NCBI GenBank assembly: GCA_030592465.1
Contig: JAUVJB010000002.1
Coordinates: 1 to 40,897 of the forward strand
Source: Bacteroidota bacterium
GTDB taxonomy: Bacteria; Bacteroidota; Bacteroidia; Bacteroidales; B39-G9
Direction: 5' to 3'
Length of the DNA: 40,897 bases
Part shown: one piece after another, positions 1 through 40,897 of the stretch
Position numbering within the stretch: the first letter of the stretch is position 1
How the letters are laid out: the number at the start of each line of letters is the position of its first letter
Notes under the pieces: generated by a model
What the model was told of the DNA's origin: nothing
What the model saw: the letters and a program-made list of their open reading frames with translations, nothing else
Databases searched by the model: none
Translations under genes and position numbers: made by a program

Positions 1-139
1 AAGTGTAAACTTTTTTCAGGACGAGACATAATAAATGTTGAAAATTAGACACGAATTTCACCTGTCTGCGTGCGGCACGCCTGACGTACCTGTCTCGTAG
101 CGAAATTTATCCGCATTTGGAATGGAATGTGAAACGGGA

Positions 140-175
140 TTTGGAACAGGTTTTGGAACGTGTTTTGGAACGTAG
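140..175. repeat. 12-bp tandem repeat x3 (tttggaacaggt / tttggaacgtgt / tttggaacgtag)
   Basis: Direct reading of the sequence. An 11-bp tandem caaccaacgca x2.4 follows at 199-225. Both lie inside the transposase remnant. Confidence 0.85.
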
Positions 176-199
176 AGACGCAATGCATTGCGTCTCTAC
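172..199. repeat. Perfect 28-bp palindrome with a GTAG head (gtagagacgcaatg|cattgcgtctctac), REP-like hairpin
   Basis: The reverse complement of 172-185 equals 186-199 exactly. A related copy is at 8472-8499. Confidence 0.9.
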
Positions 200-418
200 A
201 ACCAACGCACAACCAACGCACAACAAACGATACAGCCAAACCAAAAAATATATTTGGGCCACAACGCAAAAATTTGGCATCCATAAAACGCTGTATTAAA
301 TCTGCGGTAACAACACAAGCACAACAAATTAAACCGAATTTTGCATGGCAATCACGATATCACGACCATATTATTAGAAACAACGGTGAATATCAACTGA
401 ATACAAAAATATAAATAT

Positions 419-616
419 ATGAAAAAACACTTTTCCTGCTTTTTAGAAATATTATGGCTTATTGTATCAATATTAAGTCTTTTTGCAGGTATTCACAAAA
501 CTTATTATTATAATTTAAAAGATAGTTATATATTTTATATCTTTACATTAATTGGTTTATTTATGTATTTATATCGACGAAATTTAAGGAAAAACAAAAA
601 GGATAACACAAAATAG
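419..616 (+). CDS. Small hypothetical membrane protein (two predicted TM helices)
   Basis: 65-aa ATG ORF with two hydrophobic stretches (FLEILWLIVSILSLFAG and IFYIFTLIGLFMYLY) and a basic tail. It lies directly upstream of the CBS protein gene. I recognise no homology. Confidence 0.4.
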   Translation: MKKHFSCFLEILWLIVSILSLFAGIHKTYYYNLKDSYIFYIFTLIGLFMYLYRRNLRKNKKDNTK

Positions 617-637
617 AATATATTTTATAATTATAAA

Positions 638-1927
638 ATGAATAACATTATCATAATTCTTATTTCACTTCTTCTTTCTGCATTTTTTTCAGGAATGGAG
701 ATGGCTTTTATTTCATCAAACAAATTAAAAATTGAACTTGATAAAAAACAAGGACTATTCCCATCTAACATTATTTCAATTTTTTCAGTGCATCCCACAA
801 AATATATAGCAACAATGCTAATCGGGAATACTATTTCATTAGTTATTTATGGTATTTTTATGGCTATTATTCTTGAGCCTGTAATATTATTATATACTAA
901 GTCTGAAATATCTGTTTTATTAATACAAACAATAGTATCTACATTAATAATACTATTAACTGCTGAATTTATTCCAAAAACTTTATTCAGGATTAACCCA
1001 AATAAAATCTTAAATTTATTTGCAGTACCGGTACTAATATTTTATTATCTATTCTATCCAGTATCACATTTTACCATCTTATTTTCAAATAATTTTTTAA
1101 GCCGCATCTTTAAAATAAAAATAACAAAGAATGACACAAAAGTCTCCTTTGGTAAAATTGATTTGAATGATCTTATTGATAAAAATAAGAATATTAATAA
1201 AGAAGATTCGGAAATTGAACATGATATTAAAATTTTTAAAAACGCCCTTGACTTTTCAAAAGTAAAACTTCGCGAGTGTATAATGCCACGAAACGAAATT
1301 GTAGCATTAGATATTAATGATTCCCTTGACACTCTAAAACAAAAATTTATTAACACAGGATATTCAAAAGTTTTAATTTACGATGGAACTATTGATAATA
1401 TTATTGGATATACTCACTCATCAGAATTATTCAAAAACCCTGCGTCTATTAAAGATATGATACATAAAATACCAATAGTTCCCGAGACAATGCCTGCCAA
1501 CAAATTACTTTCCGATTTTATTCAAAATCATAAAAGTATAGCTTTAGTTGTTGATGAGTTTGGCGGAACATCCGGTATGGTAACAATTGAAGATATTATG
1601 GAAGAAATTTTTGGTGAGATAGAAGATGAGCACGACTCAACAGATCTTATTGATGAAAAAATTAACGAAAATGAATATCTTTTCTCGGGTAGATTAGAAA
1701 TTGATTACATTAATGAAAAATATACTTTAGAGCTTCCTCAAAATGAAGATTACGAAACAATTGCAGGTCTGATATTATCAAAATATGAAAAAATTCCTCA
1801 AATTAATGATAATATCATAATAGGCATTTATCACATTAAAATAATAAAAGTAAGTCAAACTCGAATTGAATTAATAAAACTTTTTATAGAAAAAAATAAA
1901 AAAACACTCAAAAAATTACAAACTTAA
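638..1927 (+). CDS. CNNM/CorC/TlyC-family membrane protein (DUF21 + CBS pair + CorC_HlyC), possibly GldE-like
   Basis: N-terminal multi-TM region, CBS-pair region and the family signature VVDEFGGTSGMVTIEDIMEEIFGEIEDEHD. Confidence 0.9.
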   Translation: MNNIIIILISLLLSAFFSGMEMAFISSNKLKIELDKKQGLFPSNIISIFSVHPTKYIATMLIGNTISLVIYGIFMAIILEPVILLYTKSEISVLLIQTIVSTLIILLTAEFIPKTLFRINPNKILNLFAVPVLIFYYLFYPVSHFTILFSNNFLSRIFKIKITKNDTKVSFGKIDLNDLIDKNKNINKEDSEIEHDIKIFKNALDFSKVKLRECIMPRNEIVALDINDSLDTLKQKFINTGYSKVLIYDGTIDNIIGYTHSSELFKNPASIKDMIHKIPIVPETMPANKLLSDFIQNHKSIALVVDEFGGTSGMVTIEDIMEEIFGEIEDEHDSTDLIDEKINENEYLFSGRLEIDYINEKYTLELPQNEDYETIAGLILSKYEKIPQINDNIIIGIYHIKIIKVSQTRIELIKLFIEKNKKTLKKLQT

Positions 1928-1955
1928 GGTTATATTTGCCAACTAAAATTGTAAA

Positions 1956-1969
1956 TTTTATTATCTTCG
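1956..1969 (+). promoter_or_regulatory. Putative Bacteroidota -7 promoter element (ttttattatcttcg; TATCTTCG approximates TAnnTTTG)
   Basis: It lies 42 nt upstream of the ppiD-like ATG. The identical 14-mer occurs 22 nt upstream of the ATG at 21157. A TTTG is present at 1935-1938. It is one mismatch from the TAnnTTTG consensus. Confidence 0.3.
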
Positions 1970-2010
1970 CAAATTCAAAAATTTAAGATAACATAAATAA
2001 ATAAATAAAA

Positions 2011-4125
2011 ATGGCCACATTACAACACATAAGAAACAAAGCAGGCGTATTGGTTGCAGTAGTTATAGCATTAGCACTATTAGCTTTCATTCTTGGCGAT
2101 ATGCTAAAATCGGGGCGTTCATTGTTTTCAAATTCGCAAAATGAAATTGCACAAGTAGCAGGTAAATCAATTCCTGTTCAGTTATATCAACAAAACGTTG
2201 AAGAAGCAACAGAAAACTACAAACGTAACACAAATCAATCAGCTGTTGATGAAGAAACAAGTGAAAAGATAAGACAACAAACTTGGGATCAATTAATTAG
2301 AAATTATGTAATGAAAAAAGAATATTCAGAGATTGGCATTTCTCTTAGCTCTGATGAACTTTTTGATATGGTTCAGGGAAATAATATTCTTCCACAAATA
2401 AAAGAAATTCCAATTTTTCAGAATAAAACAACCGGACGATTCGACCGATCATTAGTAATAGAATTCTTAAAAAACATAGATAGAGACCCTACCGGAAAAG
2501 CAAGACAAAGCTGGTTAGCTTTTGAAAAGGTAATTTCACAAAATCGTCTCAACGATAAATATAACAACTTGATAAAAAAAGGTTTGTATGTTACAAATCA
2601 AGAAGCAAAAGTCGAATCTCAAGAAAAAAATTACACAACTGATTTTGACTATTTTCTTTTGAGATACAACTCGGTTAATGATAGTTCTATTACCATTACT
2701 GATGACGATATTTCAAATTATTATAATGAGCATCTTAATAATTTCAAACAAAAAGCATCTCGTGATATTGAATATGTAACATTTGATGTTGTAGCTTCAA
2801 AAAAAGACAAACAATTGGCACAAAAATGGATTGACGATATTATTTACGATTTTACAAATACTGATGATGATGTTCAATTCGTTAATTTGAATGCAGATTC
2901 TCATTTTAATGACATTTACTACAAAGAAAAAGAGCTTCCTGCAAAAATTGATTCATTTGCTTTTCATTCAAAAGTTGGAAACGTTTATGGTCCATATCTT
3001 GAAGATGAAACATTTAAAATAGCGAAATTAAGCAAAATTGCATATTTACCGGACTCTGTTGAAGCACGTCATATATTGATTGCTTCTGACCAAAAAACCG
3101 GAGATTTCAAAAAAGCTGAAGCATTAGTAGATAGTTTGAAAACCTTAATTAAACATGGAAAGAGTTTTACCGATTTAGCAAAAAAATACTCTGCCGATCA
3201 AGGTTCAGCCGACAAAGGCGGTGATTTAGGATGGTTTAAAGAGAACACAATGGTTAAAGCCTTTAACGATTCATGCTTCTTTGCAAAAAAAAATGATTTA
3301 GTTACTGTTAAAACAAAATATGGTGTTCATCTAATCGAAATACTTGACCAAAGCAAAAAATATCAAAAAGTTCAACTCGCAATTCTTGACAGAAAGATTG
3401 AACCAAGTTCAGAAACTTATCAACGCATTTACTCACAAGCCAGTAAATTTGCAGGCATTAATAACACACAAGAGAAATTTGAAAAAGCTATTGAGAAACA
3501 AAATTTAACTAAAAAAGTTGCTAACAACTTAAGAGAAAACGATAAAAAAATCTCAGGGCTTAATTCCCCTCGCGAACTTGTAAGATGGGCATTCAAAGCA
3601 GAAAAAGGAAATGTTTCTTCTATATTTGAATTTGATAATAAATTTGTTGTTGCCACATTAACCGGTGTTAGAGAAGATGGTTATGCACCTATTGACCAAG
3701 TAAAATCGGAACTTGAAGTTGATGTCAAACGTGAGAAAAAAGCCAACAAACTAATTAAAAAAATTAACAACTTAATTAAAAATAACACAAACATTAACAC
3801 TCTGGCAAAAGAACTTAATACTGAAGTAAAATCTTCGGAAAATGTAAAATTTTCATCAATTGGAATGCCGGGACTTGGAGTTGAACCAAATCTCAATGCT
3901 GCTGCTGTAACACTTCAAAAAGATCAATTGTCAAAACCAATAAAAGGAAATAATGGTGTATATGTAATTGTAGTACAATCAATTACAGAACCGGATAAAA
4001 ACCTCGACATAAACAAAGAAAAAACTTCTCTCACTTATAATTTATTAAGACAAATAGATTATCAAGCTTACGAGGCGTTAAAAGAAAGTTCAAATATTAA
4101 AGACCACAGATCAAAATTTTATTAA
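2011..4125 (+). CDS. ppiD: PpiD-like periplasmic chaperone / parvulin-type peptidyl-prolyl isomerase
   Basis: N-terminal membrane anchor (AGVLVAVVIALALLAFILG), a long SurA_N-like region, and a parvulin block EARHILIA...KGGDLGWF...KTKYGVHLIEIL. Confidence 0.8.
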   Translation: MATLQHIRNKAGVLVAVVIALALLAFILGDMLKSGRSLFSNSQNEIAQVAGKSIPVQLYQQNVEEATENYKRNTNQSAVDEETSEKIRQQTWDQLIRNYVMKKEYSEIGISLSSDELFDMVQGNNILPQIKEIPIFQNKTTGRFDRSLVIEFLKNIDRDPTGKARQSWLAFEKVISQNRLNDKYNNLIKKGLYVTNQEAKVESQEKNYTTDFDYFLLRYNSVNDSSITITDDDISNYYNEHLNNFKQKASRDIEYVTFDVVASKKDKQLAQKWIDDIIYDFTNTDDDVQFVNLNADSHFNDIYYKEKELPAKIDSFAFHSKVGNVYGPYLEDETFKIAKLSKIAYLPDSVEARHILIASDQKTGDFKKAEALVDSLKTLIKHGKSFTDLAKKYSADQGSADKGGDLGWFKENTMVKAFNDSCFFAKKNDLVTVKTKYGVHLIEILDQSKKYQKVQLAILDRKIEPSSETYQRIYSQASKFAGINNTQEKFEKAIEKQNLTKKVANNLRENDKKISGLNSPRELVRWAFKAEKGNVSSIFEFDNKFVVATLTGVREDGYAPIDQVKSELEVDVKREKKANKLIKKINNLIKNNTNINTLAKELNTEVKSSENVKFSSIGMPGLGVEPNLNAAAVTLQKDQLSKPIKGNNGVYVIVVQSITEPDKNLDINKEKTSLTYNLLRQIDYQAYEALKESSNIKDHRSKFY

Positions 4126-4145
4126 TAAAAAATCTAATATTTAAT

Positions 4146-4184
4146 AAAAAAAAACAGACTGTCGAAAGATAGTCTGTTTTTTTT
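4146..4184. terminator. Bidirectional intrinsic terminator between convergent ppiD and yqeY
   Basis: 10-bp stem acagactgtc / gatagtctgt (one G-T wobble) with a GAAA loop at 4154-4177. It is flanked by an A-run (4146-4154) and a T-run (4177-4184). Confidence 0.85.
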
Positions 4185-4198
4185 ATAATTATATTCTC

Positions 4199-4645
4199 TT
4201 ACGACAATAAAGCCTTAACCTTATCGGCAATAATTTTCCCTTCTGCTCGTCCTGATAACTTTTTAGCAGCAATTCCCATTACCTTACCCATATCTTTTAT
4301 TGATGAAGCACCAATGCTTGAAATAATTTCTTTGATTTCTTTGCTCAATTCTTCATCACTCAATTGTTGTGGTAAGTAAGCTTGAATAATGTCAGCCTGA
4401 AAAACCTCTACTTCATACAACTCTTTTCTATTTTGCTCTTTGTATATATCGGCAGACTCTCTTCGTTGTTTTACGAGACGCTGCAAAATTTTAATTTCTT
4501 CATCTTTAGATAATTCTGAAGATGATCCCTTAGTCTTAGCAATTAATAATTCTGATTTAACAGCTCTTAACGCTTCAAGCTTTGCTTTTTGTTTAGCAAG
4601 CATTGCTTTTTTTATGTTTAATGTAATTTGGTCAAATAAGCTCAT
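4199..4645 (-). CDS. yqeY: GatB/YqeY domain-containing protein
   Basis: 148 aa. The N-terminus MSLFDQITLNIKKAMLAKQKAKLEALRAVKSELL and the overall helical pattern are typical of the YqeY family. Confidence 0.85.
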   Translation of the reverse strand: MSLFDQITLNIKKAMLAKQKAKLEALRAVKSELLIAKTKGSSSELSKDEEIKILQRLVKQRRESADIYKEQNRKELYEVEVFQADIIQAYLPQQLSDEELSKEIKEIISSIGASSIKDMGKVMGIAAKKLSGRAEGKIIADKVKALLS

Positions 4646-4666
4646 ATAATATTATTTTAAATTAAG

Positions 4667-6151
4667 TTAATCAACATTATCAAACAGATATGAATTATTG
4701 TGATTAATATTAGCATTATCACCACTTTCATCGTCGGACAAAGTGAACCTTGATATTTCTGTGCTGTCTTCTGAAAATAAGTTAAAATCCTCTAAATCAA
4801 TATCTTTTCTTTTGTAAGCCGGCACTTCCTCTAGTTCATCAATATTAGCACTTTTTAAATTGTTATTATTTCTCAATTTATTTCTGTCTAAACTGTTAGT
4901 TCTCTCACAAGACGTTTTAGGTCTTCTAAAATTTTTGCTTGCGTCTTCACTGCCATCCTCTCTTGTTGAAAGTTTAATATCAACATCTTTCTCATTTAAC
5001 TCAACTTTTTCAACATTAGTTTTACTAAATTTTATTTTTTTCTGTGCAGACGCAAAATTATCTCTCTTATTTAAAACTTTATTCTCAACCTCAAATGTAA
5101 TATTTGAATTAATATTTTCATCAAGAGAAATTTTTTCTTTCTTTTCAACATGTTTAACCGCAAATTCAGGAATAGCTTCAGTATTAAACCCTGTTGCAAT
5201 AATTGTAACAGAGATTTTTCGTCCCAAACTTTCATCAAGAGCATTACCCCAAATAATATCGGCATCTAAACCCGATGCATCTTGCAGATAATCAGTTATT
5301 TGACCAATTTCATCAACTTTTATTTCATCTTCTCTACCGGAACGTATATTCAGTAAAATATTTTTTGCTCCCCTAATATCATTATCATTCAAAAGAGGTG
5401 AATTTAAAGCTTCCTGAATAACTCTAAGTGCTCTATCATCACCTTCGGCAACAGACGAGCCCATTAAAGCAACTCCGCTATTAGTCATAACAGTATGCAC
5501 ATCAGCAAAATCAACATTAATATTACCCGGGACAGTAATTATCTCAGCAATACCTTTAGCAGCAATAGTTAACACATTATCAGCATTGGAAAAAGCTTTA
5601 GAAAACGGCAGATTGCCATAAATTTGTCGTAATTTTTCATTGTTAATAATAAGCAATGAATCAACATATTCTTTTAATTCAGCAATACCTTGAATAGCTT
5701 GATCGATTCGTCGTTTACCTTCAAACTGGAAAGGGATTGTAACAATAGCAACTGTTAAAATACCATTTTCTTTTGCCTCTTTAGCAATAATAGGAGCAGC
5801 ACCGGTACCTGTACCTCCACCCATACCGGCAGTAATAAAAACCATTTTTGTATTATGAGATAACAATTCAGTTATACTGTCAAGACTCTCAATTGCAGCT
5901 TGTCTTCCCATTTCGGGGTTATTACCTGCTCCACGTCCTTGTGTTAAAGTTTCGCCAAGCTGAATTTTTATTGGAACAGAGCTGCGCGCAAGGTCTTGTG
6001 CATCAGTATTACATACTACAAAATTCACATCAGTTATTCCCTGTTCATACATATAATTAACAGCATTACTACCGCCACCACCTACTCCAATAACTTTTAT
6101 TATTGAAGATTTTTCTTGTGGTAAATCAAAATTTATTAAATCTTCTAACAT
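4667..6151 (-). CDS. ftsZ: Cell division GTPase FtsZ
   Basis: Tubulin/FtsZ signatures [13 protein letters not shown] and [13 protein letters not shown]. The ORF-track start at 6223 is a TTG abutting a repeat. The first ATG ([27 protein letters not shown]) at 6151 fits homolog N-termini better. Confidence 0.95.
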
Positions 6152-6223
6152 AATGATATATTGTTGAGACCTTCCAGAGTCTGAAAGACCTGAAAGAGTC
6201 GGGTTAATTGTTATATTGTTCAA

Positions 6224-6287
6224 TTGTTAGACACGAATTTCACGAATTAACACGAAAAATTAGTGAAAATTTGTGTAATTAGTGTCA
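6224..6287. repeat. cacgaatt-word repeat module (ttgttagacacgaatttcacgaattaacacgaaaaatt plus an inverted partner ending gtaattagtgtc)
   Basis: The 38-mer at 6224-6261 recurs at 12521-12558 with 2 mismatches. A 17-nt piece (ttagacacgaatttcac) recurs at 45-61. gacac at 6230-6234 pairs with gtgtc at 6283-6287 as an imperfect inverted repeat. Confidence 0.85.
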
Positions 6288-6293
6288 AAGATT

Positions 6294-6335
6294 GTAAAAT
6301 CTAAAATCTAAAATCTAAATTCTAAATTCTAAATT
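6294..6335. repeat. 7-bp tandem repeat x6 (gtaaaat ctaaaat ctaaaat ctaaatt ctaaatt ctaaatt)
   Basis: Direct reading. The last unit overlaps the ftsA stop codon (6334-6336). Confidence 0.9.
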
Positions 6336-7635
6336 ACATTTTCCCATCATCTACCTCAAACATATCACTAAATTTTTCGAGGAAACCACTAAATATTTTT
6401 TTCTTCTTTCCTGAATCATTATCAACATTTTCTTGATTAGATGTATTAATTTCTTCAACATTATCAAAATCATTAAGCTCATGTTCATCATACCCTTTTA
6501 AAATCAAACCGATAGCTGTAGCATACTTAGGTTGGTTAATATCATCAACCACATCACTTGTTAAATGTTCATTAGGAAAACCAATACGCACATCCATTCC
6601 TGTTTTATATGCAACCAATTGAGGTAAATTTTTTAATAAAGCACCACCTCCTGTAATAACAATACCGGCACCTAATTTATCGGCAAAACCTGAAGTTTCA
6701 ATTTCAAAATAAATTTCACCTATTATTTCTTCCATTCTTGATTGAATGATATGAGCTAAACTTTTAAAAGAAATTTCTTTACTTGGTCTTCCACTAATAC
6801 CGGGTATAGTAACAACTTTATTCTCTTGTGCCTCATCGGCAAGTGCTGAACCGAATTTAATTTTTAAAGCCTCAGCTTGACGTTCTAATATTGAACATCC
6901 TATTTTTATATCATTGGTAATTATATTGCCTCCAAAAGGGATGACTGCAGTATGACGAATAATGCCATCGTAATAAACAGCAACATCAGTTGTACCACCT
7001 CCAATATCTGCTAAAGCAACGCCAACTTCTTTTTCATCTTCGGTTAAAACCGCATTAGAAGAAGCCAATGGCTCAAGAATTAATTTATTCACGTTTAAAC
7101 CTGCTCTATTAATGCACTTTTTTATGTTATTTCCGGAAGCTGTTTGACCGATAACAATATGGAAATTAGCTTCAAGTCGTTTTCCAAACATACCCACAGG
7201 ACTTTTCACACCTGTTTCATTATCAACAATAAAACTTTGAGGCAAAACATGAATTATTTCTTCACCAACATCAATAGGTATTCGATGCATGTCATCAATT
7301 AACATCTGCACATCTTCTTGGGTAATTTCCTCATCGTAAGTTTCCCTGTTAATATAGCCTCTGTTTCTAATGCTACGAATATGTTGTCCTGCTATTCCAA
7401 CAAAAGCATTATTAATTTTACAGTTAGAACTTTCTTCAGCCTGTTTAATTGCATCATTAATTGAATTAACAGTCTTATCAATATTAAGCACTACACCTCG
7501 CTTAACCCCGCTTGATGCAGAGTTGCCTAAGCCCAAAATTTCTAATTTTCCGGTTTTATTTTTCTTGCCAATTATGGCTACAATTTTTGTACTACCAATA
7601 TCAATAGCAGCAACAAAATTTTCTTTTTGGCTCAT
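6334..7635 (-). CDS. ftsA: Cell division protein FtsA
   Basis: Actin-like ATPase motifs AAIDIGSTKIVAIIG, DIGGGTTDVAVY and VITGGGALLKNL. The gene lies between ftsQ and ftsZ. Confidence 0.95.
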   Translation of the reverse strand: MSQKENFVAAIDIGSTKIVAIIGKKNKTGKLEILGLGNSASSGVKRGVVLNIDKTVNSINDAIKQAEESSNCKINNAFVGIAGQHIRSIRNRGYINRETYDEEITQEDVQMLIDDMHRIPIDVGEEIIHVLPQSFIVDNETGVKSPVGMFGKRLEANFHIVIGQTASGNNIKKCINRAGLNVNKLILEPLASSNAVLTEDEKEVGVALADIGGGTTDVAVYYDGIIRHTAVIPFGGNIITNDIKIGCSILERQAEALKIKFGSALADEAQENKVVTIPGISGRPSKEISFKSLAHIIQSRMEEIIGEIYFEIETSGFADKLGAGIVITGGGALLKNLPQLVAYKTGMDVRIGFPNEHLTSDVVDDINQPKYATAIGLILKGYDEHELNDFDNVEEINTSNQENVDNDSGKKKKIFSGFLEKFSDMFEVDDGKM

Positions 7636-7639
7636 ATAC

Positions 7640-8440
7640 TTATTTTTTTGTACAAATAATTTGATTACTATATTTTAAATTTATGCTTTTATATTTATTC
7701 CATCCTACTTTTGAGAATCCTTGCTTATATAACGCTTTTAATTTAGAAAACTTTTTATTAAAATCTTCAATATCACCAAACAAAATAATTTGAGAACCAA
7801 CTCTTGGTATTAATTCATATTCATTATTTTTAACATAAATTTGTTCAATTTGTGAATTCCAAAATTTATCATTATGAATAAACTTTGCCATAAGGTAAAT
7901 ATCACACAAAACACAATGTCGTTTTAACTCATCATTTTTTGACGAAGATAAAATATCTGTTGAGTAATTTAATGCATAAGGCTCATTAATATCGCCACTC
8001 GCAACTAACACACGAGCCGTATAATTTTTAGAAAGTGGCATTAATGCACCTTGCTCATCAATATAATAACTTTCGTTGTTATAATTAATTATTCGAACAA
8101 TTGGCGTCCGCTGTTCAATATCAATTTTTAAAACACCTTTTATTGTGCGGTAAACTTCCGATTTTTTTATAGACGGATTGTAATTAATTAAATCTTCCAG
8201 ATTAGCCAAATTAATACTATCAATAGGATAACCTAATAATTTTTCGCCTTTATCATAAATCATTGATATAACATCGTCTTCTTCAATAAAACGATTATGT
8301 GAATTATCAATAATATCAACATCAACAGAACTGCAAGGTATTTGTTTCTCTTTTTCAGAAACAAAACTAAAAGCAATTATTAAATAAGCAATTATTGCTA
8401 CCCAAAAAAATATTTCTTTTATATTTTTAATTCGTACCAT
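7640..8440 (-). CDS. ftsQ: Cell division protein FtsQ
   Basis: 266 aa with one N-terminal TM (IFFWVAIIAYLIIAFSFV) and a POTRA/FtsQ-like periplasmic part. Synteny is murC-ftsQ-ftsA. Confidence 0.8.
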   Translation of the reverse strand: MVRIKNIKEIFFWVAIIAYLIIAFSFVSEKEKQIPCSSVDVDIIDNSHNRFIEEDDVISMIYDKGEKLLGYPIDSINLANLEDLINYNPSIKKSEVYRTIKGVLKIDIEQRTPIVRIINYNNESYYIDEQGALMPLSKNYTARVLVASGDINEPYALNYSTDILSSSKNDELKRHCVLCDIYLMAKFIHNDKFWNSQIEQIYVKNNEYELIPRVGSQIILFGDIEDFNKKFSKLKALYKQGFSKVGWNKYKSINLKYSNQIICTKK

Positions 8441-9928: not shown

Positions 9929-10166
9929 GTAACCGTTTCCGGGTTTAAATTATTACACTAAAAATTGTTATATTGTTAAATTGCTAAATTGTTATAATTA
10001 AGATATAAAGGCAATTATTATAACCATTTAACCATTTAATACCGATGGTTCGGGATATAATTTAATATCATCCAATTATAAATACTTCTTTTCCATATAA
10101 ACAATTTAACAATTTAGCAATTTAACCATTTAGCTATCCGCCAGCTGGCGGACTGAGAACGGTTAC
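9929..10166. repeat. Mosaic palindromic element E1 (MITE/BIME-like) filling the murC-murG spacer
   Basis: It is bounded by gtaaccgtt (9929-9937) and aacggttac (10158-10166). It contains left module 9944-9970, internal inverted repeats 9972-9993 / 10100-10121, block 9997-10024, and right module 10132-10166 with hairpin tccgccagctggcgga (10137-10152). All of these modules recur elsewhere in the window. Confidence 0.85.
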
Positions 10167-12458: not shown

Positions 12459-12475
12459 TTATTAATATTTAAATA

Positions 12476-12663
12476 ATCGTTCACACATTGCTTTAAATTA
12501 TTATATTAAAAATTGTTAAATTGTTAGACACTAATTTCACTAATTAACACGAAAAATTATTGTTAAATTGTTATTGTTAATATATAGTATTTGCAAGAAA
12601 ACTAAGTCATTTATTATTATTCGTCATTGCCTCTCCGCCAGCTGGCGGACTGTGAATGGTTAC
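12476..12663. repeat. Mosaic palindromic element E2 filling the ftsW-murD spacer
   Basis: The 28-mer cgttcacacattgctttaaattattata (12478-12505) is identical to 28623-28650. The cacgaatt-type 38-mer at 12521-12558 matches 6224-6261. The 22-mer at 12559-12580 is identical to 33673-33694. The 22-mer at 12582-12603 matches 33577-33598 with 1 mismatch. The right module tccgccagctggcggactgtgaatggttac is at 12634-12663. Confidence 0.9.
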
Positions 12664-15274: not shown

Positions 15275-15282
15275 AAAGTTTG

Positions 15283-15336
15283 ATGTTTAAAGTTTAATAT
15301 TTAAAGTTGCATTTTCCATTGTTAAATTGTTTAGTG
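15283..15336. repeat. Short AT-rich word modules in the mraY-murE spacer
   Basis: atgtttaaagtttaa (15283-15297) is identical to 36646-36660. attgttaaattgtt belongs to the ttgttaaattg word family seen at 9972, 12516, 12559 and 33673. Confidence 0.6.
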
Positions 15337-15348
15337 TTTCGGCATTTA

Positions 15349-19309: not shown

Positions 19310-19317
19310 CCGGTCAT

Positions 19318-19542
19318 AATTTTAACATATATTACCTGCCCCGCAATTTGCCCCGTAGCGAAGCGTACTGGGGCGAAGCGTATCGGGGTCATTAATTGTC
19401 AATAAACAACTAAATGACAACAAATGACCCCGTGAAATATTGCTTCGCCATTACGAAATATGCTTCGCATTTCATTTGGTAAACATTTCACAGGGCAAAC
19501 AAATCACATTACACAAAATATAACCACGCAAAGTATATAATT
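19318..19542. repeat. aatgaca/gcgaagc-family long imperfect palindrome (copy A) in the ftsL-rsmH spacer
   Basis: cggggtcatt (19384-19393) pairs perfectly with aatgaccccg (19423-19432). The flanking arms carry gcgaagc / gcttcgc words. The 17-mer ccccgtagcgaagcgta (19351-19367) equals 40632-40648. Positions 19394-19420 match 40800-40826. The right-end module matches 22157-22200 and 40711-40751. Confidence 0.85.
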
Positions 19543-19568
19543 ATTCATGAGCTATTATTTTTTTATTA

Positions 19569-20468
19569 TTATACACGTTGCGCGATTCGAAGTTTCGCAC
19601 TTCTTGCTCTAACATTATTTTCAATTTCATTTTCGTTGGGAACAATTACTTTTTTATTCACAGCCTTAAAAAGAACTTTAAAATTCCCATAAAAATCTTT
19701 TTCAACCTCACCTTCAAATTTCCCTTTTTTAATATAATTCTTAACCAATCTATCTTCTATTGAATGATAAGTAATTACAACTAATCGACCATCCTTTTTA
19801 ATAACATCGCCCGATTGCATTAACAGGTCTTTTAAAGAATCAACCTCCCCATTAACCTCAATACGTAAAGCCTGAAACACTTTTGATAAATATTTATTCT
19901 CTCTGTTTTTCGGCATGCAATCACTAATAATTTCTTTAAACTGATTAATAGTTTTTATTTCATTTGTTTTTCTATAATTTACAATAGTGTTAACCAACTT
20001 TAAGGTATTACTTATTTCTCCATATAATTTAAAAATATTATAAAGTTGTTTTTCATGATAAATATTTAAAACATGTTTTGCTGTTATTGATGAATTTTGG
20101 TTCATTCTCATATCGAGCTCGCCATCAAATCTGTATGAAAAGCCACGCCCTGCTACATCAAAATGATGAGAAGAAACGCCCAAATCAGCAAACAAACCAT
20201 CAACTTGTCCAATATTATAATATCTTAAAAAATTTTTTAGGTATCTGAAATTATGGTTAACAAATAGTAAGCGTTGGTCGTTAATAACATTTAACACTGC
20301 ATCTTTATCTTGATCAAATGCAATTAATTTACCTTTTGTTAATTTCTTTAGAATCTCTTTTGAATGACCACCTCCACCATAAGTAACATCAACATAAGTG
20401 CCTTCAGGATTAATATTTAAGCCTTCAATACTCTCATTTAAAAGCACAGGTATGTGATAAGCTTTCAT
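19569..20468 (-). CDS. rsmH: 16S rRNA (cytosine1402-N4)-methyltransferase RsmH (MraW)
   Basis: Motifs HIPVLLNE, GGGGHS and DLGVSSHHFD. The start overlaps the mraZ stop by 1 nt. Confidence 0.95.
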   Translation of the reverse strand: MKAYHIPVLLNESIEGLNINPEGTYVDVTYGGGGHSKEILKKLTKGKLIAFDQDKDAVLNVINDQRLLFVNHNFRYLKNFLRYYNIGQVDGLFADLGVSSHHFDVAGRGFSYRFDGELDMRMNQNSSITAKHVLNIYHEKQLYNIFKLYGEISNTLKLVNTIVNYRKTNEIKTINQFKEIISDCMPKNRENKYLSKVFQALRIEVNGEVDSLKDLLMQSGDVIKKDGRLVVITYHSIEDRLVKNYIKKGKFEGEVEKDFYGNFKVLFKAVNKKVIVPNENEIENNVRARSAKLRIAQRV

Positions 20469-20935
20469 TATTCATCAAATTGATCAATTTGCCCATCCAT
20501 AATTTTTTCAGCTAATGCCGCAAAATCATCTTCATTACCAACTATATTATTGTATAATTCTTTATCCCAAATTTCTATTTTTCCATCCTGTCCTGCCAGA
20601 ATAACCTCTTTATTTATACCGACAATTTCAAGCAAACGTTTTGGAACTAAAAAACGATTACTTCCATCTAACATAATTTCAGCAGTACCCTTATAAAAAC
20701 CTCTCAAAAATTTATTATGTTCTTTTTTATAAGGATTAATTTTACTACGAATAATTTTATTTTGACGTTCCCATTCTTCAAGCGGGTAAAGAATTAGGCA
20801 TTTTTCAAAAAGATCTTTTTTAATGACAAACCTATCCTGAACAGATGATTTCATCTGGCGTTTCAAAGCAGACGGCAGCATTATTCTGCCTTTTGCATCT
20901 ACCTTACATGGATAATCTCCTATAAATGTTGTCAT
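20468..20935 (-). CDS. mraZ: Division/cell wall cluster transcriptional regulator MraZ
   Basis: 155 aa with two SpoVT-AbrB-like halves (FIGDYPCKVDAKGRIMLPSALKRQ and LDGSNRFLVPKRLLE). It is the first gene of the dcw cluster. Confidence 0.95.
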   Translation of the reverse strand: MTTFIGDYPCKVDAKGRIMLPSALKRQMKSSVQDRFVIKKDLFEKCLILYPLEEWERQNKIIRSKINPYKKEHNKFLRGFYKGTAEIMLDGSNRFLVPKRLLEIVGINKEVILAGQDGKIEIWDKELYNNIVGNEDDFAALAEKIMDGQIDQFDE

Positions 20936-22017: not shown

Positions 22018-22200
22018 ACGGTTATAATTTATAATTGTCATTAAATAGTTGAATTACGGCGAAGCCAAATGACTATAAATGACAGCAAAGCGTAATGACA
22101 ACAAATGACCCTGATGAAATAACCTGATAAATCAGGATTTCACGGGGTGAACGGGGCAAGCAAATCATATTACTCAAAATATAATCGTGTAGAGTATAAT
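22018..22200. repeat. aatgaca/gcgaagc-family element (copy B) between the two acyltransferase genes
   Basis: The 19-mer cgtaatgacaacaaatgac (22091-22109) is identical to 40645-40663. The right-end module caagcaaatcatattactcaaaatataatcgtgtagagtataat (22157-22200) matches 19497-19542 and 40711-40751. Confidence 0.85.
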
Positions 22201-22212
22201 AAAAATAAAAAA

Positions 22213-23193
22213 ATGCAACAAATAATATCTCCGGTTCCGAGAAGTGAACTTTTAAAAGAATTAACTGACGATAAATTTATTAGAGACACCAACAAAGCAA
22301 AAAACAAAATTTATATCTTCTCCCATCAAGACTCCCCAAACTTAATGCGAGAAGTAGGCAGGTTAAGAGAAATTTCATTTAGAGAAGCAGGAGGAGGAAC
22401 AGGCGAAGAACTTGATGTTGATAAATTTGACACTTCTAAAAATCCCTACAAACAGTTAATTGTGTGGGATCCAAAAGCAAAAGAAATAGTTGGTGGATAT
22501 AGATTTATTTTAACCGGAGACGCTGATAAAGATGAAAATGGAAATCCAATTTTAGCTACTTCACGATTATTTAACTTTTCCGATAAATTTAATGCTGATT
22601 ATTTACCTTGTTTAATTGAACTTGGCAGGTCATTTATTCAACCTAAATATCAGTCAATTAAATCACATGCAAAAAGTATCTTTGCGTTAGATAATTTATG
22701 GGATGGTTTAGGTGCTTTAATAATTAATCATCCTGAAATAAAATACTTTTTTGGCAAAGTAACAATGTATCCTCATTATAATAAAGAAGCTCGTAATTTA
22801 CTTTTATTCTTTATTCGTAAATATTTTAGAGATGACGATAACCTTATTTCTCTAATAGATCCTTTAGAAATTGACTGGGATATTAAAGAACTTGATAAAA
22901 TATTTTTGGGGAATTCTTATAAAGAAAATTATAAAATACTATCAAAAAAAGTACGTTCGTATGATGAAAATATTCCACCATTGGTTAATGCTTATATGAA
23001 TCTTTCAGCAACAATGAAAACATTTGGCACTTCAATAAATCCCCATTTCGGTAATGTTGAAGAAACAGCTATTTTAATTTCAATCAAAGATGTTTATGAA
23101 TCTAGACTCGACAGGCATCTTTTTTCTTATAAAACCTTTTTAGATAATTTGAAAAAAAATATATTAAATAATTTACCATATTCCAGTCATTAA
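22213..23193 (+). CDS. GNAT-type (hemolysin-like, OlsB/GlsB-like) amino-acid N-acyltransferase
   Basis: Block LREISFREAGGGTGEELDVDKFD...QLIVWDPKAKEIVGGYRFI is typical of N-acyl amino acid synthases. The ORF-track GTG start at 22147 lies inside the repeat; the ATG at 22213 is preferred. Confidence 0.8.
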   Translation: MQQIISPVPRSELLKELTDDKFIRDTNKAKNKIYIFSHQDSPNLMREVGRLREISFREAGGGTGEELDVDKFDTSKNPYKQLIVWDPKAKEIVGGYRFILTGDADKDENGNPILATSRLFNFSDKFNADYLPCLIELGRSFIQPKYQSIKSHAKSIFALDNLWDGLGALIINHPEIKYFFGKVTMYPHYNKEARNLLLFFIRKYFRDDDNLISLIDPLEIDWDIKELDKIFLGNSYKENYKILSKKVRSYDENIPPLVNAYMNLSATMKTFGTSINPHFGNVEETAILISIKDVYESRLDRHLFSYKTFLDNLKKNILNNLPYSSH

Positions 23194-23732: not shown

Positions 23733-23880
23733 AATCGCATGAGTCCACTGTGAAAACTATCCGCCAACTGGCGGATTAGCCGATTAGTGGTTTTGCAATA
23801 GACTGATATACAGGATTATAACCTCCAATCTTTCCGTCAGCTGACGGATTAACCGCTTTTCGGAGTGGATTCATCGCATT
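23733..23880. repeat. 148-bp nested palindromic element X (outer 24-bp stem enclosing two GC-rich hairpins)
   Basis: The outer arms 23733-23756 and 23857-23880 pair at 20 of 24 positions (18 Watson-Crick, 2 G-T). Hairpin atccgccaactggcggat is at 23759-23776. Perfect palindrome tccgtcagctgacgga is at 23833-23848 and is identical to 28766-28781. Confidence 0.85.
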
Positions 23881-23911: not shown

Positions 23912-23947
23912 AACAAAAAACGACAACCTTTAAAAGTCGTCGTTTTT
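23912..23947. terminator. Intrinsic terminator between convergent yfiR-like and T9SS-cargo genes
   Basis: Stem acgacaac (23920-23927) / gtcgtcgt (23936-23943). On the minus strand the odd pair is a G-U, followed by TTTTTTGTT. On the plus strand it is followed by TTTT. Confidence 0.7.
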
Positions 23948-28580: not shown

Positions 28581-28621
28581 TAGTCCTGATTTAAAAAATT
28601 TAATAATAAATATATTTGTAA

Positions 28622-28883
28622 GCGTTCACACATTGCTTTAAATTATTATACTAAAAATGGTTAAAACTTGTCCGACTGCCGGCGGATTGTTGAGCTTTAG
28701 CGAAATCCCAATCCATCGGGATTAAGATATAAGGGGAATTATTATAACAATCAGTCAAAAGTCAGTCCGTCAGCTGACGGATAAACTCTAACAAGTTTTA
28801 ACTATCTAACCCTGATACGCTCATACTTCGCTACAGGACAGACAATTCAGCTATCCGCCAGCTGGCGGACTGTGAACGGTTAC
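28622..28883. repeat. Mosaic palindromic element E3 containing nested element Y (28660-28802)
   Basis: Left module 28623-28663. Outer inverted repeat gttaaaacttg (28660-28670) / caagttttaac (28792-28802). Hairpins at 28671-28686 and 28766-28781. Small hairpin aatccc...gggatt at 28704-28723. Block 28721-28748 matches 9997-10024 at 26 of 28 positions. The right-module 35-mer 28849-28883 equals 10132-10166 with 1 mismatch. Confidence 0.9.
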
Positions 28884-28954
28884 TTATATTTTGAATAATT
28901 AAAAATAATAAAATTTAAATTAATAAAAAAATTAATTTAAATAGGGACTTTTTT

Positions 28955-33576: not shown

Positions 33577-33744
33577 ATATAGTATTTGTAAGAAAACTTT
33601 AAAAATCCCATAGAATCGGGATTATTGCAATACAGTTTATTTTATAAATTGAATATATTGCTAAATTGTTCTATTGTTAAATTGTTATTGTTAAGATTTA
33701 ATGACAATTATTATAACAATTTAACAATCCGCCAACCTGCAGAT
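33577..33744. repeat. Mosaic element E4 (partial) upstream of tatD
   Basis: 33577-33598 matches 12582-12603. Small hairpin aatccc...gggatt is at 33604-33623. The 22-mer at 33673-33694 is identical to 12559-12580. gacaattattataac (33703-33717) matches the E1/E3 block. A degenerate hairpin atccgccaacctgcagat is at 33727-33744. Confidence 0.8.
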
Positions 33745-33896
33745 AATAAATTTCCTTCTATTTTAAATATAGTACACGTTACAGAATTTTCGTACAAAAA
33801 CTAAATAGATAAAAACACAGCTCCTTTAATTTCAAAATAAATTATAGAATACTGATTGTTTATGACTTGTTATAATTTTTTTTGCAAATATAAAGA

Positions 33897-36645: not shown

Positions 36646-36856
36646 ATGTTTAAAGTTTAAGGTTTAACGGCAATGTCGTTTAGTTAAGAACATATCAGAT
36701 TAGCACCATTCTTTAGGATGGTGGATTAAATCAGTTAATTGTTTTGGAAGTCGGCTTAAAGCCGACTTTTAAAGAATTGCTTTTGAATTCTTAGCACCAT
36801 CCGTTAGCTAACGGATGGTGCTAATCTGATTTTTAAAATTCATCCCTTAACTTAAA
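36646..36856. repeat. Highly structured aroB-aroA spacer with nested inverted repeats and a 34-bp perfect palindrome
   Basis: Perfect palindrome ttagcaccatccgttag|ctaacggatggtgctaa at 36791-36824. The 14-bp inverted repeat atcagattagcacc (36694-36707) pairs with ggtgctaatctgat (36817-36830). Degenerate hairpin at 36704-36723. Hairpin aagtcggc ttaaa gccgactt at 36748-36768. Outer inverted repeat gtttagttaag (36678-36688) / cttaacttaaa (36846-36856). Confidence 0.85.
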
Positions 36857-36896: not shown

Positions 36897-38123
36897 ATGC
36901 AATACAAAATAACCAAAGACAATAAAAATCTTATAGGTGAAATAACCTTACCTGCGTCAAAAAGCATAAGTAACCGACTGTTAATTATTCAAGCATTAAG
37001 TTATTCACATTTCACAATTAAAAACATTTCGAAAAGTGACGATACAAAAATCATTTATTCGGTATTAAACTCAAACACAAACAATTTTGATGTAGATAAT
37101 TCGGGAACTGCAATGAGATTTTTAACTGCATTTTTGTCAAAAATTGTTGGAGAGTGGATACTTACCGGTAGCGACCGAATGAAAAAACGACCTATTGGTA
37201 AATTAGTTGATGCTTTACGTGAACTGGGAGCAAATATAGAATATATTGAAGATGAGGGCTTTCCGCCGTTAGAAATTTTAGGCTCCAACCTTACAGGCAA
37301 AACCATTGAGATTAATGCAAACATAAGTAGTCAGTTTATTTCAGCTTTGCTTCTTATCGCACCAACTTTAAAAAACGGTTTAACCATTAAACTAAAAGGC
37401 AAAATTGTTTCAAAACCATATATTGACTTAACTTTAAATATTTTAAAATATTTTGGCATTAACTCTTCTTTTATCAATAACGCTATTAAAATTAACAATC
37501 AAAAATTTATACCAAAGGAATTTTTTGTTGAAGCAGATTGGAGCGCTGCTTCGTATTGGTATGAGATGGCTGCTTTTGCAGATAATGTTGATTTAAAACT
37601 TTTTGGCTTAAGTAAAGACAGTCTTCAAGGTGATGCTGTTGTTGCAAAGATATTTGAAGATTTCGGCGTTAAAACAACTTTTTTCAACAATGGTATTCAT
37701 CTGACAAAAAAAGAAAGTAATATTAAAGAATTCAATATTGACTTAACAAATTATCCTGACCTTGCTCAAACTTTAGTTGTAACTTGTGCGTTTTTGGAAA
37801 TTCCTTTTAAAATTAGCGGTTTAGCAAACTTAAAAATAAAAGAAACAAACAGAATTAAAGCTTTAATAAACGAACTTTCAAAATTTAATATAAATTTGAA
37901 TGAGACAAGCGAAGGAGTTTTAGAATGTAATAATTTTCAACCCAACAATATTGAAGAATATTTTATCAACACCTGTAACGACCATAGAATGGCTTTAAGT
38001 TTTTTGCCAATTTCAATTCTTAACAAAAAAATTATTATTGATAATATTAATGTAATAAATAAATCGTATCCTGCTTTTTACGACGATTTAGGGAAAGTCG
38101 GGTTTGAGGTTAGAGAGGGATGA
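36897..38123 (+). CDS. aroA: 3-phosphoshikimate 1-carboxyvinyltransferase (EPSP synthase)
   Basis: Motifs LPASKSISNRLLII, NSGTAMRFLTAF and RMKKRPIG. Confidence 0.9.
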   Translation: MQYKITKDNKNLIGEITLPASKSISNRLLIIQALSYSHFTIKNISKSDDTKIIYSVLNSNTNNFDVDNSGTAMRFLTAFLSKIVGEWILTGSDRMKKRPIGKLVDALRELGANIEYIEDEGFPPLEILGSNLTGKTIEINANISSQFISALLLIAPTLKNGLTIKLKGKIVSKPYIDLTLNILKYFGINSSFINNAIKINNQKFIPKEFFVEADWSAASYWYEMAAFADNVDLKLFGLSKDSLQGDAVVAKIFEDFGVKTTFFNNGIHLTKKESNIKEFNIDLTNYPDLAQTLVVTCAFLEIPFKISGLANLKIKETNRIKALINELSKFNINLNETSEGVLECNNFQPNNIEEYFINTCNDHRMALSFLPISILNKKIIIDNINVINKSYPAFYDDLGKVGFEVREG

Positions 38124-40529: not shown

Positions 40530-40585
40530 TATACTCTGCTTCGTAATAATTTGAGCTAATTTATATACTATAAAACAATTATAAT

Positions 40586-40897
40586 TTTAAAATATAGCCA
40601 TTAATAGTCATTGATAGTCATTAATTGCCAACCCCGTAGCGAAGCGTAATGACAACAAATGACGGCGAAGTCAAATGACGGTAAAGCCAAATGACAGCAA
40701 AGCTAAATGACAAATTATATTACGCAAAATATAACCTCTCAAAGTATAATTTTAACATATATTGCCATTAATAGTTATTGATAATCATTGATAGTCATAA
40801 ATTGTCAGTAAACAACTAAATGACAATCCCGAAGCTTCAGCGATTTTCTATTGACTATTGATTATTGTCTATTGCTCGCTAACACATTGGTTAATAG
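40586..40897. repeat. Two tandem aatgaca-family elements (C1 to about 40751; C2 from 40749, running off the window)
   Basis: 10-bp-phased tcattRatag words at 40594-40629 and 40759-40800. 16-17-bp tandem caaatgac-N8 x3.5 at 40656-40713. ccccgtagcgaagcgta at 40632-40648. Right-end module at 40711-40751. The C2 start ttttaacatatatt equals 19320-19333. 7-bp ctattga-type tandem at 40849-40876. Confidence 0.85.

Follow-up and report, generated by a model that had tools for sequence, protein, structure and literature searches.

Two segments of a 40,897-nucleotide stretch of Bacteroidota DNA (the window), X (23733-23880) and Y (28660-28802), each contain two GC-rich hairpins enclosed by an outer stem. 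A preliminary description, made from the sequence alone, held that the two have one architecture and unrelated outer stems, likened the preserved pairing of those stems to compensatory covariation, and suggested either a structured RNA or a hairpin-bearing mobile unit. The locus therefore raises the question of which of these X and Y are and of whether they are the same thing at all.

Genetic setting

The window has a GC content of 29.6% and carries a complete dcw cell-division cluster on the minus strand, extending from mraZ (20468-20935) to ftsZ (4667-6223) in the order mraZ, rsmH, ftsL, ftsI, murE, mraY, murD, ftsW, murG, murC, ftsQ, ftsA, ftsZ. A plus-strand group of acyltransferase, GNAT, and YfiR/DUF4154 genes is also present, as is an ExbB-ExbD-ExbD operon, after which come usp, a gene for a SPOR-domain protein, and one for an amidotransferase-like protein. 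For YfiR, Usp, and MurG, the closest named homologues belong to Saccharicrinis, Labilibacter, Salinivirgaceae, and Bacteroidales MAGs, which marks the organism as an uncultured, Marinilabiliales-like member of the Bacteroidia. A Pfam scan of 30 window ORFs detected no transposase gene and, specifically, no Y1 transposase/RAYT.

The scan of the genes also yielded two incidental observations. The mechanical ORF start of the GNAT gene, a GTG at 22147, overlaps a repeat module (22147-22215), and alignment with a related locus (L122) indicates that the true start is an ATG near 22214. Two relatives have a small gene for a 23S-rRNA-intervening-sequence protein (PF05635) between murE and mraY (L439, 5621-5941; L441, 5761-6138), which the corresponding spacer of the window (15275-15348) lacks.

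Element X and its insertion site

All of the features that had been described for X are present. Hairpin A (ATCCGCCAACTGGCGGAT, 23759-23776) is followed 56 nt further on by hairpin B (TCCGTCAGCTGACGGA, 23833-23848) and, after another 8 nt, by the right arm; together with their flanks, the two hairpin units form direct repeats identical at 23 of 31 nt. The outer stem, put at 24 bp, is imperfect, however, comprising 18 Watson-Crick and 2 G-U pairs together with 4 mismatches, three of which are consecutive. These three mismatches arise because the outermost 7 nt are a perfect direct repeat that is nearly palindromic by chance. The features of X and its surroundings are as follows (in this and the later lists, a strand is given where one was assigned).

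23734-23740, left target-site duplication of X, ATCGCAT, identical to 23873-23879
23741-23756, left terminal inverted repeat of X, GAGTCCACTGTGAAAA, with 3 mismatches to the reverse complement of 23857-23872
23759-23776, subterminal GC-rich hairpin A of X, ATCCGCC-AACT-GGCGGAT
23833-23848, subterminal GC-rich hairpin B of X, TCCGTC-AGCT-GACGGA
23857-23872, right terminal inverted repeat of X, TTTTCGGAGTGGATTC
23873-23879, right target-site duplication of X, ATCGCAT
23916-23947, bidirectional intrinsic terminator common to yfiR and a convergent 378-aa gene, kept in relatives, with X upstream of it

The terminal inverted repeats are 16 nt long and match at 13 of 16 positions, and a perfect 7-bp direct repeat flanks them directly, a combination absent from all 20,000 shuffles of the 204-nt spacer. 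The element proper measures 132 bp, and no ORF of at least 80 aa overlaps it. As had been described, it is located downstream of the yfiR stop codon and ahead of the terminator, which is real and bidirectional.

Two orthologous loci, L122 (YfiR 83% identical) and L123 (84% identical), have no X. In both, the spacer from the yfiR stop codon to the stop codon of the convergent gene is ~80 bp and holds only the conserved bidirectional terminator, whereas the spacer in the window is 257 bp, X being the extra DNA that makes it longer. The X-free site in these relatives is too diverged to display a single ATCGCAT. With its inverted repeats, its perfect duplication, and two orthologous loci that are without it, X behaves as the hairpin-bearing mobile unit that had been suggested.

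X occurs once in the window and has no BLAST match among the plasmids of PLSDB. The word GTCCAC, found once in the window, at the start of the X inverted repeat, precedes four of six TCCGCC hairpins at a locus of a Prolixibacteraceae MAG (L093). Positions 1-8000 of that locus contain GTCCAC/GTGGAC 44 times in 8 kb, which hints at an element family related to X.

Y lies within a larger element, E3

Y, too, has its features where they had been placed. Its arms (GTTAAAACTTG and CAAGTTTTAAC) pair perfectly over 11 bp and its hairpin B is identical to that of X, but an A-G mismatch lies within its hairpin A (TCCGACTGCCGGCGGA) and its outer stem is at the level of chance: perfect inverted repeats of 11 bp or more with 20- to 200-nt spacing number 17 in the window and 10.5 +/- 3.2 in dinucleotide shuffles. 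As a mobile unit in its own right, Y did not hold up, having no target duplication of its own. It is instead the core of a larger element, E3, whose empty site is kept in a relative, and its left arm starts at the end of the conserved left module of what we call the E elements.

28610-28617, left target-site duplication of E3, ATATATTT, matching 28884-28891 (TTATATTT) at 7 of 8 positions
28618-28631, left terminal inverted repeat of E3, GTAAGCGTTCACAC, with the IS66-like start GTAAGCG
28632-28659, minus strand, conserved end module of E3, common to E1 and E2 and adjoining the downstream gene (alignment A1; repeat families D6 and D7)
28660-28802, Y, variable palindromic core of E3, without a flanking direct repeat; its parts are the 11-bp inverted arms, two hairpins (28671-28686 and 28766-28781), a further hairpin, AATCCC...GGGATT, and a module common to E1 and 33690-33720
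28854-28869, hairpin of E3, TCCGCCAGCTGGCGGA, abutting the right inverted repeat (repeat family D2)
28870-28883, right terminal inverted repeat of E3, CTGTGAACGGTTAC
28884-28891, right target-site duplication of E3, TTATATTT

E3 (28618-28883) is 266 bp long, is overlapped by no ORF of at least 80 aa, and lies in the spacer bounded by the ExbD terminator and the start codon of usp, in agreement with the reported position of Y upstream of usp. Its inverted repeats (GTAAGCGTTCACAC and GTAACCGTTCACAG) match at 12 of 14 positions and, in combination with the 8-bp duplication (7/8), were reproduced by 1 of 1,000 shuffles. The locus L431, whose Usp is 84% identical, retains the exact empty site, in which ...TTTAAAATATAA is joined directly to TTTATTTTAG... 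and the duplicated octamer is present in one copy; E3 is absent from L433 and L436 as well. The flanks of both elements thus display the insertion polymorphism for which the preliminary description had proposed to look, X being missing from L122 and L123 and E3 from L431, L433, and L436.

The sole match of an exact-protein look-up was a short Logan contig from the organism of the window itself, which is contained in sequencing run SRR32546279. A Logan contig from that organism with an identical Usp, L121 (1-58), ends 21 nt inside E3. Since assemblies usually break at multi-copy repeats, this break fits the presence of several E3 copies in that genome.

At the place of E3, L433 (Usp 73% identical) has a different insertion (3420-3520), which is without GC hairpins or E ends and has a piece, ...TTYGCTAAAGYTCAAC..., in common with the Y core. 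Insertions seem to recur at the site of E3. The Y arms (GTTAAAAC...GTTTTAAC) were also considered as an integron attC-like site, a reading that was rejected; the core sites misfit RYYYAAC/GTTRRRY, and the neighbours are housekeeping genes, not cassettes.

E1 and E2, sisters of E3 in the dcw operon

The spacers upstream of murC, ftsW, and usp agree in a left module of ~50 nt and a right module of ~32 nt and differ in their cores (alignment A1; families D2, D6, and D7). This comparison defines two further E elements.

9929-10166, minus strand, E1, sister MITE of E3 in the murG-murC spacer; its end modules are those of E3, and it has a hairpin (10137-10152) and a 31-nt internal inverted repeat (I15) of its own
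12473-12663, minus strand, E2, sister MITE in the murD-ftsW spacer, containing a hairpin (12634-12649) and without a significant fold as a whole

The ends of E1, E2, and E3 are inverted repeats with the consensus GTAASCGTTCACA, the complementarity of which ends after 13 to 14 nt; ends other than the left end of E3 mostly read GTAACCG or ATAATCG. All three elements (3 copies in 41 kb) have the same orientation, each 10 to 40 bp ahead of the start codon of a minus-strand gene (murC, ftsW, and usp), and a promoter might lie in, or be tolerated by, the gene-proximal module; the elements might likewise supply or tolerate transcription into these genes.

E1 is absent from three relatives (L439, L441, and L442), in which the murG-murC spacer is 6 to 9 bp versus 311 bp in the window. 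E2 is absent from two of the same three, with a murD-ftsW spacer of 69 bp versus 213 bp. Because these spacers are short in relatives, we concluded that E1 and E2 are also insertions, which split a normally tightly packed dcw operon.

X and the E elements as probable MITEs

We consider it probable that X is a MITE of 132 bp and that E3, with Y as its core, is another, unrelated to X, 266 bp long, and with IS66-like ends; the two contain the same hairpin module. X and E3 are lineage-specific insertions bounded by terminal inverted repeats and target duplications, and they exhibit the features by which MITEs are recognized, namely, small size without coding capacity, inverted repeats, a target duplication, and presence in one genome with an empty site in another.

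Under this reading, the insertion of X would have separated the yfiR stop codon from a pre-existing bidirectional terminator, and E3 would have entered the stretch from the ExbD terminator to the usp start codon. X and the E elements are presumably nonautonomous and mobilised in trans by DDE transposases whose genes lie at other places in the genome; for the E elements, the mobilising enzyme may belong to the IS66 family, in which case its gene would be flanked by GTAAGCGTTCAC ends. The outer stem would correspond to the paired transposon ends (in X, also to the near-palindromic duplication), and the inner hairpins would be subterminal palindromes. The apparent architecture shared by X and Y would then follow from the fact that such elements are built with inverted ends and subterminal palindromes.

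Several observations count against this reading. X is single-copy in the window, neither a second copy nor a cognate transposase was retrieved, and the window itself has no transposase. The inverted repeats are short and imperfect (13/16 in X and 13 to 14 nt in the E elements, versus the 20 to 30 nt typical of IS66), and the duplications are poor at E1 (5/8) and E2 (2/8).

Among the bacterial MITEs whose transcripts fold as long hairpins are the Correia/NEMIS elements of Neisseria, the enterobacterial ERIC/IRU elements, and the pneumococcal RUP elements. These are 100 to 300 bp long, non-coding, and intergenic, have inverted repeats and a duplication (of TA in the case of Correia elements), are often co-transcribed with adjacent genes, and are variably present between related genomes. 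X and E3 are like them in size, lack of coding capacity, inverted repeats, duplication, intergenic site, and variable presence. They differ from them in duplicating 7 bp (X) or 8 bp (E3), in having no sequence similarity to them, and in carrying discrete GC-rich subterminal palindromes in a context of ~30% GC.

The ends of IS66 elements start with GTAAGCG and the family generates 8-bp target duplications, and some of its members are of Bacteroidetes/Chlorobi origin (PMC11946415). E3 has GTAAGCG at its left end and an 8-bp duplication that matches at 7 of 8 positions; at E1 and E2 the octamers match at only 5 and 2 positions. The inverted repeats differ, being 20 to 30 nt long in IS66 and 13 to 14 nt long in the E elements, and most E ends read GTAACCG/ATAATCG. 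Neither IS66 tnpA/B/C genes nor a full-length partner of the E elements was seen in the window. We regard the IS66 link as a tentative lead, somewhat more apt to be wrong than right.

A GC-rich hairpin in elements with unrelated ends

The MITE reading leaves one observation unexplained, namely, that a GC-rich palindrome recurs in two MITE families with unrelated ends. The module common to X and the E elements is a palindrome of 16 to 18 nt, TCCG(C/T)C-loop-G(G/A)CGGA. Its motif TCCGNCNNNNGNCGGA is found seven times in the window (starting at 10137, 12634, 23760, 23833, 28671, 28766, and 28854), with 0 expected from 100 shuffles, and all seven TCCGNC-NNNN-GNCGGA hairpins of the window lie inside X, E1, E2, or E3. 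No such hairpin occurs in ~72 kb of syntenic DNA from relatives (L122, L123, L431, L433, L436, L439, L441, and L442). A degenerate eighth copy (TCCGCCAACCTGCAGA, 33728-33745) in the spacer upstream of tatD adjoins E-type core modules and has no recognisable E ends.

An alternative explanation is that the 16- to 20-nt GC-rich hairpin is itself the mobile or selected unit, REP-like and spread by a Y1/HUH (RAYT-type) or other enzyme, and that it has colonised AT-rich intergenic DNA and older MITEs, X and Y being alike since each was hit twice. TCCGCC-NNNN-GGCGGA, with its TCCGTC/GACGGA variant, would then be a mini-module spreading independently across Marinilabiliales-like Bacteroidia and into unrelated MITEs; a Bacteroidetes-type RAYT, or a templated hairpin insertion leaving a 3- to 4-nt duplication, would be the candidate mechanisms. 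We think both the general proposal and this more specific version of it unlikely, although the occurrence of the same hairpin in elements with unrelated ends speaks for them, as do certain loci elsewhere. A scan of genome contigs with a loose two-hairpin pattern returned mostly high-GC, REP-rich genomes (Dyella, Acidobacteriota, and Dehalococcoidia) and few informative Bacteroidia loci, namely, L093 (Prolixibacteraceae), L080 (Mariniphaga), and L061. These MAG loci are rich in TCCGCC-loop-GGCGGA hairpins, with 4 to 6 per 5 to 8 kb, variable loops, and both orientations. In L080 (1400-4600), a ~45-nt unit of CACTGAT-like words is present in six copies with a 16-nt TCCGCC-AGTG-GGCGGA hairpin and three copies without it, and some of the hairpin-bearing copies show a TGA/CTGA duplication; it is these copies with and without the hairpin that suggest a 3- to 4-nt duplication on hairpin insertion. 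Also in favour is RAYT subclass 2.6, which is mostly from Bacteroidetes and has been tied to "atypical secondary structures" (PMC6006769).

Within the window, the evidence points the other way. The seven hairpins have no GTAG/CGTC tag and no common flanking tetranucleotide, no consistent short duplication lies beside them, the units in X are direct rather than inverted as in REPINs, and the 30 ORFs scanned include no Y1 transposase. Nor is the exact 16-mer globally over-represented: in viral contigs it is found at 55 loci, versus 91 and 41 for two composition-matched control palindromes. The idea that it is a "universal word" was rejected, as it is no commoner than these controls and its flanks in viral contigs look random. 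A metagenome scan for TCCGCCAGCTGGCGGACTG gave at least 120 matches in organisms of 29 to 69% GC with unrelated flanks, and none among the matches listed was related to the window.

Like the hairpins of the window, the REP/BIME/REPIN sequences associated with RAYT/TnpA-REP are short GC-rich intergenic palindromes that occur between convergent or co-directional genes and in mosaics with other modules. The GTAG- and CGTC-tagged REP families were rejected, since their stems, tags, and tails differ from those seen here; CGTC-type stems, for example, are 8 to 9 bp long and start with AT (PMC3733652). Elements mobilised by Y1 transposases are without inverted repeats and duplications, whereas X and E3 have both, and this also sets them apart from the IS200/IS605-derived PATE, which have subterminal hairpins.

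A role for the hairpins as intrinsic terminators was not supported; a weak T-rich tail is found only at hairpin B of Y, on the minus strand, and the hairpins of E1 and E2 lie within an essential operon.

The predicted folds and the outer stems

A functional structured RNA (a 3'-UTR stabiliser, a processing element, or a small RNA) is the other reading that had been proposed for X and, perhaps, Y. The predicted folds are strong, at -54.8 kcal/mol for X (z = -6.1 versus dinucleotide shuffles) and with a z of -4.6 for Y, X lies in the yfiR transcript with the terminator downstream, and the TCCGCC/GGCGGA and TCCGTC/GACGGA stem variants both retain pairing. We nevertheless judge this reading to be quite improbable. 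The outer stem of X consists of a near-palindromic target duplication plus transposon inverted repeats, and that of Y is a chance-level internal inverted repeat. They are not homologous positions, and there is consequently no compensatory covariation between them. The proposal that the outer stems might turn out to be target-site features applies to X, the stem of which includes the duplication, and not to Y, which has no flanking duplication.

The demonstrable likeness between X and Y is confined to the hairpin module. Hairpin B is identical in the two, but hairpin A differs, and outside the hairpins the similarity of their interiors is not significant (60 of 500 shuffles match its score); the interior of Y has a clear module in common with E1 and with 33690-33720 (0 of 500 shuffles). 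The C-G to T-A change in the hairpin stem is a single subtype, identical in X and Y, rather than a set of independent compensatory events, and a target-site duplication is a signature of DNA insertion. A closed fold is also not constant in the E family, since E1 has its 31-nt internal inverted repeat at the corresponding place and E2 has none, the fold of E2 being no better than those of shuffles (z = -0.5). Rfam gave 0 matches at the gathering score and, at E <= 1, only chance-level hits with half the gathering score or less, and the same loci in relatives with 83 to 85% protein identity do not contain the elements. The absence from close relatives, the lack of an Rfam match, and the inconstant fold together argue against a selected RNA structure. 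If X is a MITE, as we favour, and is co-transcribed in the yfiR 3' UTR, its fold would be a by-product of the symmetry of the element and may incidentally affect the 3'-end stability, decay, or RNase processing of the yfiR mRNA.

It is very improbable that the 16-bp palindromes are double-stranded operators for a dimeric DNA-binding protein, for although TCCGCCAGCTGGCGGA and TCCGTCAGCTGACGGA are perfect 16-bp palindromes and three copies lie upstream of genes, the AACT and TGCC variants lose central symmetry and keep the stem, which fits a hairpin and not a duplex site, the sites came with insertions that are missing from relatives, and they lie 190 to 270 bp from the start codons of the unrelated genes murC, ftsW, and usp or, in X, in a 3' spacer.

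Other repeats in the window

A second, unrelated repeat family occupies 19310-19568, 22018-22213, and 40530-40897 of the window and is also found in L122 (801-1046) and L439 (1443-1630). It is made of GCGAAGC-type mini-hairpins and of nnAAATGAC and TCATTGATAG word repeats and includes a conserved 48-nt module (19490-19537, 22151-22198, and 40701-40748). Being partly common to relatives, it is older than X and E3.

Tandem AT-rich words (AAATCTAA/AAATTCTA) are repeated about five times between ftsA and ftsZ (6224-6333), and octamers of the AATTGTTA type occur in E1 (9964-10137), in E2, and at 33657-33728. They recall the TAACTGA-type heptamer repeats described in intergenic DNA of Bacteroidetes, Cyanobacteria, and Beggiatoaceae (PMC4679880). 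The element cores and nearby spacers likewise consist of AT-rich words with a period of 7 to 13 nt (AATTGTTA, AAATCTAA, and nnAAATGAC in the window; CACTGAT in L080), but the heptamer repeats are plain direct arrays near start codons and not bounded elements with GC hairpins. Finally, positions 36694-36830, ahead of the gene at 36897-38123, form a long near-perfect inverted repeat, ATCAGATTAGCACCA...TGGTGCTAATCTGAT, that encloses GC hairpins and matched nothing in Rfam at the gathering score.

Implications

What appeared to be a covarying RNA fold is, in these elements, the signature of mobile DNA, a warning against annotating such regions as noncoding RNA. This lineage of Bacteroidia has recently gained probable MITEs at unusually sensitive places, inside the dcw operon and in the usp promoter region, which raises the questions of transcriptional read-through, of promoters borne by the elements, and of effects on mRNA 3' ends. 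X and the E elements are useful for strain typing and account for breaks in assembly contigs.
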